This document shows positions 18,580 to 26,089 of a DNA stretch of 64,000 nt, in pieces. Under the pieces are notes generated by a model. It did no database searches. It worked only from the letters and a program-made list of their open reading frames with translations, and was not told the DNA's origin. Source of the DNA: an uncultured delta proteobacterium. GTDB taxonomy: Bacteria; Myxococcota_A; Polyangia; Fen-1088. The first letter of the stretch is position 1. Each line of letters starts with the position of its first letter. Position numbers and translations under genes: made by a program. The stretch lies in NCBI GenBank assembly GCA_963737265.1, contig CAVTRY010000013.1, forward strand, positions 352,001 to 416,000, written 5' to 3'.

Positions 18580-18602
18580 CAGTCTGCAACGGCTTGTTGG
18601 GC
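18580..18602 (-). repeat. attC remnant (R'' and L'' half)
   Basis: Minus strand GCCCAAC-AAGCCGTTGCAGAC shortly after the GNAT stop. Confidence 0.65.
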
Positions 18603-21454: not shown

Positions 21455-21524
21455 CCGGTCATGTATATACCAAGCATATACATCTGGCAAGACATCGTGC
21501 ATCACCATCGCGCTGGGCGTGTAC

Positions 21525-21564
21525 GTCTAACGCCTTGCCGTTAAGCTTCAACGGCTTGTTCGGC
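21525..21564 (-). repeat. attC with central deletion (40 bp)
   Basis: Minus strand GCCGAAC-AAGCCGTTGAAGCTTAACGGCAAGGC-GTTAGAC. Confidence 0.75.
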
Positions 21565-21918: not shown

Positions 21919-22148
21919 TCGCTGCGCTCCAGCGTACGCCGGGCAGCTCGCGGCGCAAATCCATCAGCTGGCTCCTTCACGTCGTCGAGAACACGATTCA
22001 TCGCCTCCGTTACGCTGTCCGGCGCGTGGCGCGCGACGTACTCGCTGAGTGCACACGAGTACACCTCGCTTCTCGACCGCTTCGCCCGGTGGGCGAGGGT
22101 CTCAGCCCTCTCAAAGATGTCGTCTGGAATGGAAACCGCCGTCTTCAT
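21912..22148 (-). CDS. RHH antitoxin cognate to MazF
   Basis: MKTAVSIPDDIFERAE...SRSEVY; ends in EW and overlaps the toxin. Confidence 0.88.
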   Translation of the reverse strand: MKTAVSIPDDIFERAETLAHRAKRSRSEVYSCALSEYVARHAPDSVTEAMNRVLDDVKEPADGFAPRAARRTLERSEW

Positions 22149-22154
22149 ACTCGC

Positions 22155-22182
22155 AGTATAACCCGGTATAACCTTCGGTCAA
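22155..22182 (-). promoter_or_regulatory. Leaderless mazEF promoter/operator
   Basis: TTGACC-N16-TATACT ending 6 nt before the ATG; GGTTATAC direct repeat overlapping it. Confidence 0.7.
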
Positions 22183-22201
22183 CCCTCACTGCATCACGTC
22201 C

Positions 22202-22261
22202 GCCCAACGCTTTGCCGTTAAGCGGCGGGCCAAGCCCGTCCGCTGCAATGACTTGTTAGGC
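22202..22261 (-). repeat. Intact attC (60 bp)
   Basis: GCCTAAC-AAGTCATTGCAGCGGACGGGC-TTG-GCCCGCCGCTTAACGGCAAAGC-GTTGGGC; stop TAA inside R''; extrahelical bases present. Confidence 0.92.
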
Positions 22262-22492
22262 TGCGCCCCGCCGGAGGGAGCGAACGGAAACCAGATCCTC
22301 GTCCATGACATTTCGGACGTCACCCTCGTGAAGCGTCACCAGCGCCTGGGTCCGGCCCGATGCAGTCACAAACTCCACGTCGAGTCCATCCGGATCATAC
22401 GTGCCCACGACAGCGCCCAGATCCCCGCATCGCAGACCGTCGCCTGGAAGGTCCCGAATCAAAACTACCGTGTCGAGTTCTTTGAACTTCAT
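22256..22492 (-). CDS. DUF4926-family protein
   Basis: FKELDTVVLIRDLP..GL..GDLGAVV...VEFVTASGRT. Confidence 0.85.
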   Translation of the reverse strand: MKFKELDTVVLIRDLPGDGLRCGDLGAVVGTYDPDGLDVEFVTASGRTQALVTLHEGDVRNVMDEDLVSVRSLRRGAA

Positions 22493-22827
22493 GACGTCTC
22501 ACCCGGAAATGCTGTGACAAATCTCGGAAAGCTCTCGCCAGTCCGCACCATCCAGACCGTTACTGTTTCTGCGCCCCGTCCAGATGGCCCGACAAGCATA
22601 CCACGCACCTCGTACTTTTCCCCGAACGCACTGGGCTGGCCCTCGGTGGCGGTCCCGGATCGGCAAAGCGTGAGGAGGTCGGCCTGCAGCCGCGACCAGT
22701 CAGACCGTTCGTAGCCGAGTGACCGAAAGAAGACGGCCTTGAATCGACCAACCGGATGCTCGGGCGACAACAGGTAGTCGCGAACTTTCGCGATGTCGAT
22801 GGATGCATGCTCGGCTCCCGGTATCAT
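22489..22827 (-). CDS. DUF6883-family protein
   Basis: KVRDYLLSPEHPVGRFKAVFF..LGY...FGEKY...TVW...PRFVTAFP. Confidence 0.82.
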   Translation of the reverse strand: MIPGAEHASIDIAKVRDYLLSPEHPVGRFKAVFFRSLGYERSDWSRLQADLLTLCRSGTATEGQPSAFGEKYEVRGMLVGPSGRGAETVTVWMVRTGESFPRFVTAFPGETS

Positions 22828-22976
22828 TTCCAATTTCCCTCAAGCCAGCCTAACGCTTTGCCGTTCAGCGGCGGGCGCCGAAGGCGACCGTCAGTCAGCT
22901 AAAGGTAGTTGCAAATGGAAACGGGGACGTCCCAAAAGTGCCGAAGTCCGAAACCATGACGAAGGATGTCATCCCC

Positions 22977-24245
22977 ATGAAGAAGCGTATCTATCGCAGA
23001 ATGCCCGTCAATGATTTTCAACCACAAAGCATCTCGCCCGCCGACCTGGGCGGCAAGCTGGTCCTCGCCATCGATGTCGCCAAGGTCGACATGGTTGCAG
23101 CGTTCGCTGGCGCCGACGGGCGTGTGCTGCACACCATCTCTTGGAAAGCCCCAGAGCAGAACCCCACGGTGCTCTCCATCCTGCGCGGCTACCGCACCGC
23201 CGGCATCATCGTCGAAGCCGTCATGGAGCCTTCCGGAACCTACGGCGATGTGCTTCGCCACCAGCTCGAACAGGACCGCTTTCCGATCTTCATGGTCAGC
23301 GGCAAGCGCACCCACGATGCGAAGGAAATCTTCGACGGCGTGCCCAGTCTTCACGACGCCAAGGCTGCCGCCATCATCGCCAGGCTGCACGCCGACGGCC
23401 TTTCCACCCGCCTGCCTGACGAAGTCCCAGAACGTCGGCAGCTCAAGGCAGCACTGGCCATCATGGATCTGCACCAGGAGCGCTACCTGCAGCTCGTGCA
23501 TCGCTTGGAAAGCTGGCTCGCTCGCCACTGGCCCGAGTTGCCCAGCCTGCTTGATTTGACCTCGGCATCGCTTATGGCGCTGGTCGCGCGTATCGGCGGT
23601 CCTGCCGATGTCGCCGCTGCCCCGGACAAGGCGACGAAGCTCCTTCGTGGTATCAGTCACAGGCTGATTGCCGACGACGACGTTGCTGCCGTTGTCGCCT
23701 CGGCCAGCACCTCCGTCGGCGTCCCGATGGTCGGGCTTGAACGCGACGCTTTGATGGTAATCGCCGAAGAGGCCTATGACGCCCACCGGGCCTTCAGCAC
23801 GGCCAAGACGAAAGTCGAAAAACTCGCCGCCACCACGCCCGCCGCCGCGCTTGCCCCCGTCGTCGGCCGCACCACCGCTGCCGCCATCTTCGCCGAGGTC
23901 GGTGATGCACGATCGTACTCGTGTACACGCGCTTTCCTCAAAGCCATGGGCCTCAACCTCAAGGAGAAAAGCAGCGGTACCATGCACGGTCAGATCAAGA
24001 TCACCAAGCGTGGTCCATCCCGCGTACGCCAGCTACTCTGGCTCGCCATCTTCCGCTGGATTCAGGATGATCCCATCGCCAACGCCTGGTACCAGCGCAA
24101 AAAGCAACGAGACGGCGGCCGAGCCTCGCGAGCTGCCGTCGCGCTGATGCGCAAGCTGGCCAAGGGGCTGTACCACGTCGGTCGCGGTGGCACCTTTGAT
24201 AGCAGCAAGCTCTTCGACACACGCCGTCTGCAGGTGACGACGTAG
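22977..24245 (+). CDS. IS110-family transposase/recombinase
   Basis: LAIDVAK, MEPSGTY, HDAKAA (RuvC-like); GLNLKEKSSG...ITKRG (Ser-containing C-domain); start could be 22956. Confidence 0.92.
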   Translation: MKKRIYRRMPVNDFQPQSISPADLGGKLVLAIDVAKVDMVAAFAGADGRVLHTISWKAPEQNPTVLSILRGYRTAGIIVEAVMEPSGTYGDVLRHQLEQDRFPIFMVSGKRTHDAKEIFDGVPSLHDAKAAAIIARLHADGLSTRLPDEVPERRQLKAALAIMDLHQERYLQLVHRLESWLARHWPELPSLLDLTSASLMALVARIGGPADVAAAPDKATKLLRGISHRLIADDDVAAVVASASTSVGVPMVGLERDALMVIAEEAYDAHRAFSTAKTKVEKLAATTPAAALAPVVGRTTAAAIFAEVGDARSYSCTRAFLKAMGLNLKEKSSGTMHGQIKITKRGPSRVRQLLWLAIFRWIQDDPIANAWYQRKKQRDGGRASRAAVALMRKLAKGLYHVGRGGTFDSSKLFDTRRLQVTT

Positions 24246-24271
24246 CCATGGTGGTGTTGGAACGACCCATG

Positions 24272-24605
24272 TTGAACATTCTGGATTTCCGAAGGGTGAC
24301 CTTCTGTTGAAGCGTATCTCTGCCATGTGCAAGAGCGCCGTCTGTCTTGAGGCACCCCGAGGATTTTTGATCTGACCCTGTCCATCTTGGTCAGACCCAC
24401 TTGCAGAAAAGGAGCAAACAACCAAAGCAAACCAATTCCTTGAACGTGTGAGATATCCGACGGGTGACCTCCTGTTGAAGCTCATCTCTGCCTTGTGCAA
24501 GAGCGCTGTCTGTTTCGAGGCACCCTGAGGATCCATCGACCTGACCCAATCTCCGTTGCAAGCTGACTCGATGCCGGCCCTCGCGGACATCCTACTGGAG
24601 CGTTT
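24272..24605 (+). ncRNA. Putative bridge/seek RNA with two tandem target-binding modules and one donor-binding loop
   Basis: About 107-bp direct repeat with 168-bp period; each copy folds stem-internal loop-stem with loop segments matching the attC target; a downstream segment matches the IS end junction. Confidence 0.7.
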
Positions 24606-24788
24606 CGTTTACCCAGGCCGATTGCCGCCCGATCTCTCGCCCGCTCAATCCGCTTCGCGTACCAGATCCTTTCCACCGCATCTTTCAGACTGCGGAACGG
24701 ATCTCGTGTGCCCAGACGACCCCGATCACTCCCTGTTCTTTTTACTTGCACTGCCTACGAGCGCTGCAACGGCTTGTTCGGCGGCACC

Positions 24789-25082
24789 TCACCGCCGATG
24801 CTTCCAAACCTCGGGATCGCGATGAAGATGGATGACACCAAAGAGTATGATCTTGTCGAACTCGTCGACGAAGTACAAACCGTAGGGGAAGCGCCCGACC
24901 TTTGCCATGCGCATCCCCACTTCTCTCTCCTGAAACATGAGCGGATTCTCAGCAATTCGAGCAACCGCCCTTTCAACCTCAAGCGAGAACTCCGCCCCGA
25001 ATCCTTCGCGTTCGTTCTCATACCAGAGCGCGGCCTCGATGACATCAAGCTCGGCTTCCGCCCGAATCTCGACGGGCTTCAT
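24789..25082 (-). CDS. ParE/RelE-family toxin
   Basis: AELDVIEAALWYENEREGFG...RFPYGLYF...HLHRDP. Confidence 0.9.
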   Translation of the reverse strand: MKPVEIRAEAELDVIEAALWYENEREGFGAEFSLEVERAVARIAENPLMFQEREVGMRMAKVGRFPYGLYFVDEFDKIILFGVIHLHRDPEVWKHRR

Positions 25083-25324
25083 CTGGTTGGAGAACGCAGG
25101 ATCGATCGCATCTCATCGCGAAACTCGCTCCACGGGCGAGAACTACCCTTGCCCGAACGATACGCTGCAAGACGTTCCGCCAGAATCTTTCGGTGCCAGT
25201 CCGGCACCGGAATCTGCTCGGGTTTCGACACGACGCGAGCCCAAAGAGCCTCAAGGTAGTCGAGCTTTTCCTCGACGGAAAGTTCGTCGAATCCGGGAGG
25301 GGCAGTGATGGGGACCGATGCCAT
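25079..25324 (-). CDS. Addiction-module antitoxin component
   Basis: LSVEEKLDYLEALW...PDWHRKILAERL...PWSE; ATGA overlap with the toxin. Confidence 0.88.
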   Translation of the reverse strand: MASVPITAPPGFDELSVEEKLDYLEALWARVVSKPEQIPVPDWHRKILAERLAAYRSGKGSSRPWSEFRDEMRSILRSPTR

Positions 25325-25393
25325 GGAGGAAGTATACCTCCGATGCGGCCTTTGGACAGCCGCTTGTGTGGGCCGGTCACCACGCGCGTGTCC

Positions 25394-25412
25394 GTCGAAC
25401 TTACTATTAGCC
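25394..25412 (-). other. attI-like site
   Basis: GGCTAAT-AGTAA-GTTCGAC: degenerate L box, 5-bp spacer and GTT core, same geometry as attI1 (CCCTAAA-ACAAA-GTT); lies ahead of the first cassette with no attC hairpin. Confidence 0.6.
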
Positions 25413-25633
25413 TGCAAAGAGTACCCCAATATTTCTGCGAGCGTCTCGCAAGCTTTCAGGCGCGGACGGAGACGGTCTGCCCGTGACTTCGCGGGGTTCG
25501 ACTTCGGGGAGGTTTGCCATTCCACTGCTGGCGCCTCGGATTGGCGTGCGCGCAAGCTTGATAAGACGATAACAAAACGCTGCCAGGCAGCTGGATATCA
25601 CCGGTCGAGGGGGCTGCGAACGCCGCAGGCACT

Positions 25634-25978
25634 GAAGCTACGTGGTAGGTGGCTTCGGTGAACGTGTACGTTGACCCAAGCCACGTTGCATGGGGCTTCG
25701 CTGGACGTATACGTTCGCCAAGCCTACGTCGTACGGGGCTTTCGTGGACCGACGCGTTGGAAGAAGCCGCGTTGGACGTGGCTTCGCTGGACGCATACGT
25801 TCGCCAAGGCTGCGTGGGACGTGGCTTCGCTGGACGTATACGTTCGCCAAGGCTGCGTGGGACGGGGCTTTCGTGGACCGCCGCGTTGGGAAAGGCTGCG
25901 TGAGACGCGGCTTTGCTGGACGTATACGTTGGCCGAGGCTGCTTGGTACGGGGCTTTCGTGGACCGACGCGTTGGGCG
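25634..25978. repeat. Tandem array of 8 x about 43-bp double-hairpin units
   Basis: Unit AAGGCTGCGTGGGACGTGGCTTCGCTGGACGTATACGTTCGCC with two variants in order AABAABAB. Confidence 0.9.
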
Positions 25979-26089
25979 GGGACGTCTACGGCCACGACCA
26001 CCCTTCGTCGCCCTGCCAGGCGAGAGAATTGGCCTTGGAATGGTGCCTTCAGCCCGGCGCCCCGCGATGTCGCTGCGCTTGTCGCGGGA

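Follow-up and report, generated by a model that had tools for sequence, protein, structure and literature searches.

An attC-inserted IS110-family element whose putative guide RNA has two target-binding loops and one donor-binding loop

An IS110-family element inside an integron attC site

The stretch of DNA analysed here (the window) covers 64,000 nucleotides (nt) of the genome of an uncultured delta proteobacterium. Between positions 22895 and 24763 it carries an insertion sequence (IS) of the IS110 family, which is sited inside an integron attC site and has two imperfect repeats in its 3′ non-coding region (Table 1). This region probably encodes a guide RNA (bridge or seek RNA) in which two loops bind the target (target-binding loops, TBL) and one binds the donor (donor-binding loop, DBL). 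All coordinates are window positions, L-numbers designate element loci, and the genome containing the window is called the own genome.

We set the extent of the element by comparing the junctions of its copies in the own genome, i.e., four full copies (97-100% identical) and a fifth copy split in two pieces. The junctions of the window element are ..C-AG/TCAGCTAAAGG on the left and ..CCTACGAG-CG/CTGCAACGGCTTGTT on the right (the slash marks the element boundary). Left junctions were invariably ..C-AG-TCA(G/C)CT in the four own-genome copies and 10 loci that were compared. All junctions read ..C-AG/TCAGCT on the left and CCTACGAG-NG/(C/G)T(G/T)CAACG.. on the right, the latter adjoining an R″-like box (GCCGAAC or GCTAAC). 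The boundary of the left end (LE) is the same in all copies and relatives, and its TCAGCT start is retained at 38-41% transposase identity. The base ahead of the final G of the right end (RE), e.g., window position 24762, varies between C, A, G and T among insertions, while the corresponding base of the left junction is always A. Such variation is in line with a core of two bases in which donor and target may differ at the first position.

The flanks, read on the minus strand, are those of an attC site: R″ is GCCGAAC and L″ is ..CCGTTGCAG, and they are followed at a distance by L′ and by R′, GTTAGGC. Uninterrupted attC sites of the same type read ..GCCGTTGCAG-CTGAC.. or ..GCCGTTGAAGCTTAACGGC... 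Comparing these with the flanks indicates that insertion takes place at a single point and in a single orientation, at the inner edge of L″, as in the attC-targeting group of IS. The cassette array of the window has a very short uninterrupted attC at 21520-21564 (around 45 nt from GCCGAAC to GTTAGAC). The initial annotation had placed an attC motif at 21525, but this motif, CCGTTGAAGC, occupies minus-strand positions 21545-21554. The array has other attC-like sites at 18602 and 22261, also on the minus strand. We found no match to an integron integrase within the window, although it contains attC sites. The own genome does encode an intact integron integrase (C17:93644-94585, 456 bits, above the cut-off), a few hundred bases from the sister copy C17a. 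A partial integrase gene with an internal stop (C11:1165137-1165457) adjoins copy C11a.

The only gene of the element encodes a recombinase with DEDD (RuvC-like) and Tnp domains, and the putative RNA region is located between its stop codon (24245) and the RE (24763), as expected for a bridge or seek RNA. The protein matched the Pfam profile PF02371 with 54.3 bits, PF01548 with 26.9 bits (just below the 29-bit cut-off), and the NCBIfam profile NF033542 (“IS110 family RNA-guided transposase”) with 112 bits for a cut-off of 140. Its likeness to the PDB chains of IS621 and ISCro4 is weak (E about 1e-3) and concerns the Tnp domain only. The proteins of relatives align from residue 1 of the form starting at the ATG. 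Among 72,556 plasmid records, the element had no match by blastn, and the best match by tblastn (38%) was restricted to the C-terminal part.

Table 1. Features of the element and of the modules predicted in its non-coding region (aa, amino acids; identities are to four relatives)
Feature	Position	Strand	Description	Identity
Left flank	22848-22894	-	Part of the interrupted attC: R′ GTTAGGC (minus strand, 22848-22854), L′, left target ..CCGTC and core AG (22893-22894)	
LE	22895-22976	+	Starts TCAGCTAAAG; short interrupted subterminal inverted repeat GTAGTTGCAA (22905-22914)	
Transposase/recombinase gene	22977-24245	+	IS110-family, intact; 422 aa from ATG, 435 aa from GTG at 22938	0.62-0.71 (third codon positions)
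TBL1	24282-24370	+	Outer stems 24288-24290/24362-24364 and 24294-24303/24349-24357; inner hairpin about 24319-24336; covariance model 103.6 bits	0.86-0.88
TBL1 guides	24304-24314 (5′); 24338-24344 (3′)	+	5′ CTGTTGAAGC-G (CTGTTGCAGC-G in four sister copies); 3′ CCGTCTG	
Spacer between modules	24371-24449	+	Local hairpin CUGACC...GGUCAG (24371-24397)	0.63-0.75
TBL2	24450-24538	+	Stems 24462-24471/24517-24525; covariance model 97.2 bits	0.81-0.94
TBL2 guides	24472-24482 (5′); 24506-24512 (3′)	+	5′ CTGTTGAAGC-T; 3′ CTGTCTG	
DBL	24540-24617	+	Closing stem CCUG (24540-24543) / CAGG (24614-24617)	0.86-0.94
DBL guides	24561-24568 (5′); 24591-24602 (3′)	+	5′ AGCUGAC(U), complementary to (A)G-TCAGCT of LE; 3′ CCUACUGGAGCG, resembles RE end CCTACGAG-CG	
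DBL inner hairpin	24570-24591	+	GAUGCCG...CGGACAUC	
Long hairpin between DBL and RE	24657-24712	+	Predicted by folding; conservation 0.68-0.91	
RE	24713-24763	+	Subterminal repeat TTGCACTGCCTAC (24746-24758); end ..CCTACGAG (24761); core CG (24762-24763); from junction comparison	
Right flank	24764-24782	-	Right target CTGCAACGG, i.e., L″ of attC (minus strand); R″ GCCGAAC (minus strand, 24776-24782)	

Two similar modules with a conserved fold

The initial annotation had described an imperfect repeat with a period of 168, an outer stem and an inner hairpin in each copy, and guide-like segments in the internal loops. Our analyses bear this description out. A direct-repeat search found one single family, at 24272-24364 and 24440-24532 (93 nt, 84% identity, spacing of 168), and a gapped alignment carries the likeness to about 24388 and 24556, with a mean column identity of 85%. 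Taken alone, each copy folds by pairing GGGUG-A-CCU(U/C) with GAGG-CACCC; this stem encloses an inner hairpin and a large internal loop. The consensus fold obtained with RNAalifold on 17 modules is the same, and the loop segments are where they had been placed (Table 1). Both modules are present in all five own-genome copies, and also on many contigs of other assemblies; TBL2 is unchanged in four of the five copies and has a single substitution in the fifth. Hence, the duplication is not the assembly artefact that the initial annotation had considered as a refutation.

We tested the module structure on alignments fitted to a covariance model, which favours the model, using 500 shuffles and controls in which the structure was slid along the alignment. 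In 24 distinct modules from both clades (the clade of the window and a distant one), 96.3% of the cells were paired and compensatory changes were found at five pairs (12 cells), a result reached by none of the 500 shuffles, whereas the slid controls had at most 55% of paired cells. An independent set of 80 distinct modules from metagenome contigs gave 98.1% of paired cells and compensatory changes in eight of 18 pairs (0/500 shuffles). The right ends of homologous IS thus provide the covariation that had been proposed as a check, and they carry one, two or three modules. Since the slid controls scored low and the whole inner hairpin has been replaced between clades, the fold is likely to be real. 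The modules also have a conserved U-G pair, which fits an RNA of the plus strand. Among 67 distinct modules of the attC-targeting clade, the mean entropy of paired columns was 0.069 bits, as opposed to 0.67 bits for the 5′ loop and 0.49 bits for the 3′ loop. A permissive scan of positions 22000-26000 with Rfam 15 gave no bridge-RNA-like family, and its two matches, elsewhere, were at chance level.

It is hardly credible, and nothing specific suggests, that the repeats act as DNA, e.g., as repeated protein-binding sites. The compensatory changes keep the hairpin, and the conserved G-U pairs exist only in the sense of a plus-strand RNA. In addition, the layout of the units is homologous to that of experimentally defined seekRNA and bridge RNA modules, and each strand of the loop matches a different strand of the target across the crossover.

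The two modules are followed by a different unit, the putative DBL, which is single and located after the last module in every complete element. The motifs that had been linked to the donor, AGCTGAC (24561) and CCTACTGGAGCG (24591), are present and resemble the LE start TCAGCT (22895) and the RE end CCTACGAGCG (24754-24763), so that the unit has loops complementary to the joined ends of the element, with an imperfect match in the window clade. The closing stem shows compensatory changes, from CCUG/CAGG to CCCG/CGGG (L021) and ACGG/CCGU (distant clade), and the inner hairpin has a compensatory change from G-C to A-U. In three lineages, the 3′ guide changes along with the RE end: GGAGCG goes with CGAGCG, CGUAAGUG with CACAAGCG (L046, allowing wobble), and UAUGACAG with TATGACAG. 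We considered that the two repeats could themselves be a TBL and a DBL in disguise. This was rejected, because neither matches the element ends and a separate donor unit follows in every element.

The 5′ loop of the DBL (24551-24568) reads UCCGUUGC(A/C)AGCUGACU, and its 3′ part is complementary to the LE (AG-TCAGCT). If one extra base is allowed, the string as a whole is also complementary to the right side of the target (AG-CTGCAACGG), and the distant clade has no such match. This complementarity may reflect a longer “handshake” with the target, once the strands have been exchanged, or it may be a side effect of the GTCAGCT that is common to LE and target.

Relatives with one, two or three target modules

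The distant relatives L022-L025, from metagenome-assembled genomes of Methylococcales-like bacteria and Nitrosomonas (38-41% recombinase identity), have a single TBL downstream of the gene, and then one DBL. Their TBL has the scaffold found in the window (UCCG..GGGGUGACCUUC, loop, hairpin, loop, GAGGCACCC..CGG), and their second unit is recognisably that of positions 24540-24617 (AGCUGA.(C/U)CGAUGCC, hairpin, GGACAUCC, loop, UUUACCC). The guides are unrelated to those of the window, with GCGCGCCCCU and GCUAAG in the TBL loops and UAUGACAG in the 3′ loop of the DBL. The flanks of these elements match their own guides: AG-GGGCGCGC on the right, GCTA-AG or GGTA-AG on the left, and a right end, TATGAC-AG, that equals UAUGACAG. 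These comparisons show the homology of the window repeat units with the single target-binding module of distant relatives, the non-coding region of the window element being arranged as TBL, spacer, TBL, DBL.

We searched genome-derived loci with nhmmer and a covariance model. Two modules were identified in L011-L018 and L027, three in L019, and a single one in L021 (80% identity), L046 (58%), L047, L022-L025, and the deletion derivative L040. In the latter, positions 1359-1810 include a transposase fragment, then one target module, a donor unit, and the RE, i.e., what may be a non-autonomous miniature form. The metagenome survey included 80 loci. We left out 19 of them (14 whose match did not include the 3′ part of the gene, and five ending before residue 410) and examined 61, of which 49 were complete, with a DBL downstream, and 12 were cut by the contig end or lacked a DBL. 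Two elements, L089 and L092, have two modules and no detectable DBL. At recombinase identities to the window of at least 80%, 27 elements had two modules and six had one. The corresponding numbers were one (L134) and five at identities of 58-79%, and zero and 10 below 45%; these 10 distant relatives (38-40% identity) have their TBL and DBL on the scaffold of the window modules, and their guides, very different ones, match the flanks of each element. A single TBL with a single DBL is therefore the general condition, and doubling of the TBL is characteristic of one clade: the canonical layout is found neither in the window element, nor in 27 of the 33 complete close relatives, nor in L019.

The family has a limited distribution. 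No module was detected in a sample of 150 other genomes of the phylum, which suggests a rare or narrow element family, although such a sample is no proof of absence. Modules were present in eight of 100 genomes of relatives, six of these being among the 12 genomes of the same genus. Some relatives lack modules altogether. In L020 (62% transposase identity) neither a module nor a repeat was found downstream of the gene, and the non-coding region seems to have been replaced or lost. The degenerate relative L006/L010 (C11:1196718-1198843; 86% identity) has a frameshifted gene and around 1.1 kb between the gene and the RE. Neither this element nor the remnants consisting only of an RE (L009) contain a module at E-values up to 1. 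Such RE-only remnants (the last 38-95 nt) occur at attC sites of the own genome, without transposase gene or module (C7:295572-295609, C7:296180-296241, C13:450512-450607, C6:119466-119552, C11:2905), and may be the product of aberrant excision or deletion.

A few loci have unusual junctions or flanks. In L018 (2903-4770), the 10 bases to the left of the element (TCCGACCGTC) reappear right after the RE, ahead of the usual right target, and L027 (3810-3830) has an extra AGCG after the RE, which makes the junction irregular. L017 (2902-7211) includes two element copies around 2.5 kb apart whose left flanks are identical, suggesting a duplicated segment of cassette plus element. The same left flank is found in L011, from a different assembly.

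Guides follow the insertion sites

In the internal loop of a TBL, the two strands match different strands of the target, one on each side of the crossover. The sister TBL1 guide, CTGTTGCAGC, forms pairs with the top strand G-CTGCAACGG at all 10 positions, one of them G:U; this is the site of all five own-genome copies, and the TBL1 3′ guide CCGUC.G matches the left target CCGTCAG. The match of 12 out of 15 positions to the insertion site that the initial annotation had reported is correct on the sequence. The TBL2 guide, CTGTTGAAGC, has one mismatch at G-CTGCAACGG, but pairs at 10 of 10 positions with G-CTTCAACGG, a site occupied by relatives (L012, L109, and others) and by two RE remnants of the own genome. 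The occupied sites of the own genome are accordingly of the GCAGC type for the five copies and three remnants, and of the GAAGC type for the two other remnants. In the window copy, the TBL1 guide (24304-24313) differs from that of its sisters L002, L003, L004 and L007 by a C-to-A change and is now equal to the TBL2 guide. This could be either a mutation that followed insertion or a conversion between the modules.

In 36 element-site pairs, we set each 5′ guide (10 nt) against the 10 bases at the right junction, using the score of the best module, counting own-genome copies once, and dropping visibly duplicated contigs. With Watson-Crick pairs only, the scores summed to 305 for a permuted mean of 290, and none of 20000 permutations was as high; with G:U pairs allowed, the sum was 325 for a mean of 315.3, and 44 of 20000 permutations were as high, figures that overstate the significance because the elements are related and not independent. 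The guide-target covariation that had been proposed as a check is thus present. Guides of the GCA type are found in 21 of the 22 elements located in xTGCAAC sites and in two of the 14 located in xTTCAAC sites, whereas a GAA-type guide is found in all 14 of the latter. The changes concern guide and site together in several lineages: GAUGAAGC goes with CTTCATCGG (L093, L099), AAUUGCAGC with CTGCAATG (L019), and GCACC with GTGCAAC (L097). Hence, guides change with the target both between clades and within the clade. These two usual classes of guides, GCA and GAA, correspond to the common attC variants ..GTTGCAG.. and ..GTTGAAG.., and both variants are occupied by the element family. In multi-module elements, the best-fitting module was the upstream one in 10 cases, the DBL-adjacent one in six, and the two tied in 12. 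Use of the second guide is suggested by L109 and L067, two elements that have GCA and GAA guides and yet occupy TTCA sites.

The extra module might have a role other than insertion, as a decoy that titrates the recombinase, as a guide for excision, or as an element for the processing or stability of the downstream RNA. The excision idea comes from the base that follows the 5′ guide, which is G in first modules and U in many second modules, so that the TBL1 guide continues ..GC-G, which pairs with the CG of the right junction, and the TBL2 guide ..GC-U, which pairs with the AG of the empty site; right junctions are mostly CG, while left junctions and empty sites are AG. Excision of IS1111 elements also requires flanking target sequence, according to the available passages of PMC11187229. 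Yet, second modules with a G at this position exist as well (L080, L081, L090, L109, L118), single-module relatives perform both reactions, and the guides of upstream modules track insertion sites as an insertion guide would. We therefore regard a non-insertion role of the extra module as improbable.

Both modules are under constraint

The two TBLs and the DBL are more similar between the window and four relatives than the surrounding sequence is (Table 1). The spacer is the least conserved of the non-coding parts. Both TBLs are thus constrained, since they are better conserved than the spacer and than the third codon positions of the transposase gene. The claim of the initial annotation that the element has two target modules and one donor loop gains from this constraint, as it does from the scaffold of the single-TBL relatives and from the covariation between guides and sites. 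Every structural part of this arrangement is supported by comparative data. In our assessment, both modules are probably functional.

Several observations weigh against this reading. The second module of L011 is decaying: its outer stem is lost, a base is inserted in its guide, and it scores 63 bits instead of about 97. The 5′ guides of the two modules are identical in the window copy, L061, and L108. Only two of the 17 elements with GCA and GAA guides sit where the second guide is needed. The common site of the L013-L017 lineage, CTTCAACGG, mismatches each of its guides once, and L094 fits both of its guides poorly. Many 3′ guides have ..GUC-UG where all left junctions have ..GTC-AG, i.e., a U that pairs with no observed site. 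An earlier test on seven lineages gave 12 of 5040 permutations with Watson-Crick pairs but 1224 of 5040 with G:U pairs, which is not significant. The DBL is less tidy than the TBLs, because its 3′ guide fits the RE end in the window clade only with a 2-nt bulge and its 5′ guide has an A facing the core G in several lineages. Folding energies were ordinary relative to shuffles (z about -1.0 to -1.2 per module, and +1.1 for the whole 520 nt); the support for the structure therefore comes from covariation, and the energies are uninformative either way.

The first of these points would be expected if the duplication were real and derived from a TBL, but each element had one working module, the other being a spare or a slowly decaying hitch-hiker in an array without advantage. 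The degraded module of L011 and the identical guides of the window copy, where the TBL1 guide became the same as that of TBL2 after insertion, and of L061 and L108 are in line with this view, as are the scarcity of elements at sites requiring the GAA guide and the evident viability of single-module relatives. Tandem non-coding units of IS110 elements have also been read as by-products of half-match recombination (10.64898/2026.08.14.744561, in the part of the text available). However, a hitch-hiker should not be far better conserved than the spacer and the synonymous sites among elements around 30% diverged at third codon positions. It should not keep 98% of its stem cells paired in 80 distinct modules either, nor be retained by 27 of 33 complete close relatives. 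The regular partition of the guides (GCA-type plus GAA-type) and the fact that each module position is the best fit in different insertions also argue for the use of both modules. We consider it unlikely that each element has one working module.

Expression and possible functioning of the array

In four metatranscriptome runs from soil and wetland, contigs extend over the gene and every non-coding part of close relatives; such contigs do not show strand or ends, and they may result from DNA carry-over, which tempers their value for the proposed RNA. One spans 24245-24438 with two differences and another 24463-24576 with four, and one joins 24368 to 24441, as in a relative with a shorter spacer. 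A scan of the element for promoters and terminators found neither, and the lack of a promoter-like site is another point that does not favour the proposed RNA gene. By analogy with published elements, transcription would start from a promoter formed when the ends are joined, and the joined ends could form one, TTGCAC-17 nt-TAAAGG, that we read by eye.

The transcript would carry TBL1, TBL2 and the DBL in the non-coding region downstream of the gene that encodes the transposase, in an IS1111-like manner. In each TBL, the 5′ side of the loop would pair with the right target on its top strand (core G and CT[G/T]CAACGG), and the 3′ side, which has the sense of the left target (..CCGTC-AG), would pair with the bottom strand. 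The DBL would do likewise where the ends of the element are joined in the excised circle (..CCTACGAG-CG-TCAGCT..). In IS621, TBL and DBL work as separate molecules, and two RNA molecules are believed to supply the two loops of the synaptic complex (PMC11208158). If this model is valid here, each TBL is an independent cartridge: the target depends on which TBL is loaded, and both TBLs share the single DBL. By analogy with IS621, either TBL could then load onto a recombinase dimer and combine with the DBL. We infer transcription, processing, loading, and independent use of each module.

One element would in this way address two attC variants, ..GTTGCAG.. through the GCA-type guide and ..GTTGAAG.. 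through the GAA-type guide. The corresponding attC target strings would be ..GTTGCAGCTGACGG.. for the sister TBL1 (GCAGC) and ..GTTGAAGCTGACGG.. for TBL2 (GAAGC). The likeliest benefit would be the coverage of the two common L″ variants of these cassette arrays, and we infer, with good support, that the array widens the recognition of variable attC sites. The array probably arose by tandem duplication of a TBL in one clade, after which it was retained, its guides diverged, and it was extended to three modules in at least one element.

Two TBLs could also, in principle, bring two attC sites into one synapse and recombine them. The cassette arrays in which the elements reside have many near-identical attC, the synaptic loops of IS621 are believed to come from two RNA molecules (PMC11208158), and donor-donor recognition was reported to suffice for excision (10.64898/2026.08.31.748434, in the available text). 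These points are indirect. No junction of such a rearrangement was seen, although none was sought, and duplication would be unnecessary for this, as single-TBL elements could use two copies of one RNA, and ordinary insertion explains the covariation between guides and sites. A recombination of attC by attC that would delete, invert and shuffle cassettes independently of the integrase is thus highly improbable. If true, it would make an insertion sequence an integrase-independent driver of these rearrangements. We also give little credence to the broader proposal of a natural, heritable guide array providing two to three target specificities per recombinase and donor loop, in which two TBLs in one synapse could recombine attC sites.

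With two functional TBLs, this clade would be a case of natural multiplexing of the target loop, in which two constrained copies are tuned to two common variants of attC, a target both polymorphic and structured. A mobile element with site-specific insertion could thereby keep up, by simple means, with a family of targets that varies. The elements also offer natural guide-target pairs from which the rules of pairing could be worked out in a branch of recombinases distant from IS621, and, for engineering, a natural precedent for multi-target bridge RNA transcripts with one shared donor loop. For integrons, they would represent a second, protein-divergent, attC-targeting lineage, found in soil and peat Myxococcota-like genomes.

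Comparison with known systems

Bridge and seek RNAs have been described as having a single target loop and a single donor loop in each element. We found no account of an element with more than one target-binding loop in a literature search whose coverage left out most subscription journals, in agreement with the initial annotation, which had not recognised the arrangement as described. A preprint (10.64898/2026.08.14.744561) deals with tandem non-coding units next to IS110 transposase genes, for which it requires at least 95% identity, and its available text reads them as one-sided (half-match) growth. These units resemble the ones studied here in being tandem non-coding copies that adjoin an IS110-family transposase gene. 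However, the same text names no TBL units with diverged guides, whereas the units of the window are 84% identical, old, constrained, and guide-bearing. Another preprint of 2026 clusters bridge RNA loci and describes longer guides, and its available passages make no mention of duplicated loops.

Tandem scaffolds with varying target-specifying letters and one effector are also the organisation of CRISPR and TIGR arrays. TIGR systems are described in PMC12045711 (available passages). The window element differs from both in having two to three units, no sign of acquisition machinery, two split guides per unit, one for each DNA strand, and recombination, rather than cleavage or binding, as its outcome.

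Among IS110 elements, the bridge RNA of IS621 and ISCro4 (Durrant et al. 2024, PMC11208160; Hiraizumi et al. 2024, PMC11208158) is similar in its recombinase, with RuvC-like DEDD and Tnp domains, and in being an element-encoded RNA with a stem, an internal loop, and a hairpin. Its loop strands also pair with opposite DNA strands around a short core, with one unit for the target and one for the donor. In contrast, the RNA gene studied here is downstream of the recombinase gene, the order of the top-strand and bottom-strand guides is reversed, the recombinase (422 aa) is only weakly similar, and each donor unit is accompanied by two target units, or by one to three in relatives.

The element also resembles the IS1111 group, for which we refer to Siddiquee et al. 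2024 (PMC11187229). In seekRNAs of the IS1111 type, the top-strand match is 5′ of the bottom-strand match. The window element has this order of guides and the downstream non-coding region of the group, but not the length of its transposases (330-350 aa). Its subterminal repeat, read by eye, is an interrupted GTAG..TGCAA (22905-22914 and 24746-24758) with terminal extensions of around 10 and 5 nt, for 7-17 bp in the IS1111 group. The seekRNAs of ISKpn4, ISPst6 and ISPa25 are encoded in a downstream non-coding region, in a module of around 82-96 nt with both target matches, the top-strand one being 5′, and these elements insert at one end of attC, in a single orientation. By their descriptions in that source, they have one seekRNA, whereas in the window clade the module is duplicated or triplicated and the transposase has 422 aa. 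These comparisons support the view that the locus encodes the bridge or seek RNA of a divergent, attC-targeting branch of the IS110 family, in which the target loop has been multiplied in a non-canonical way.

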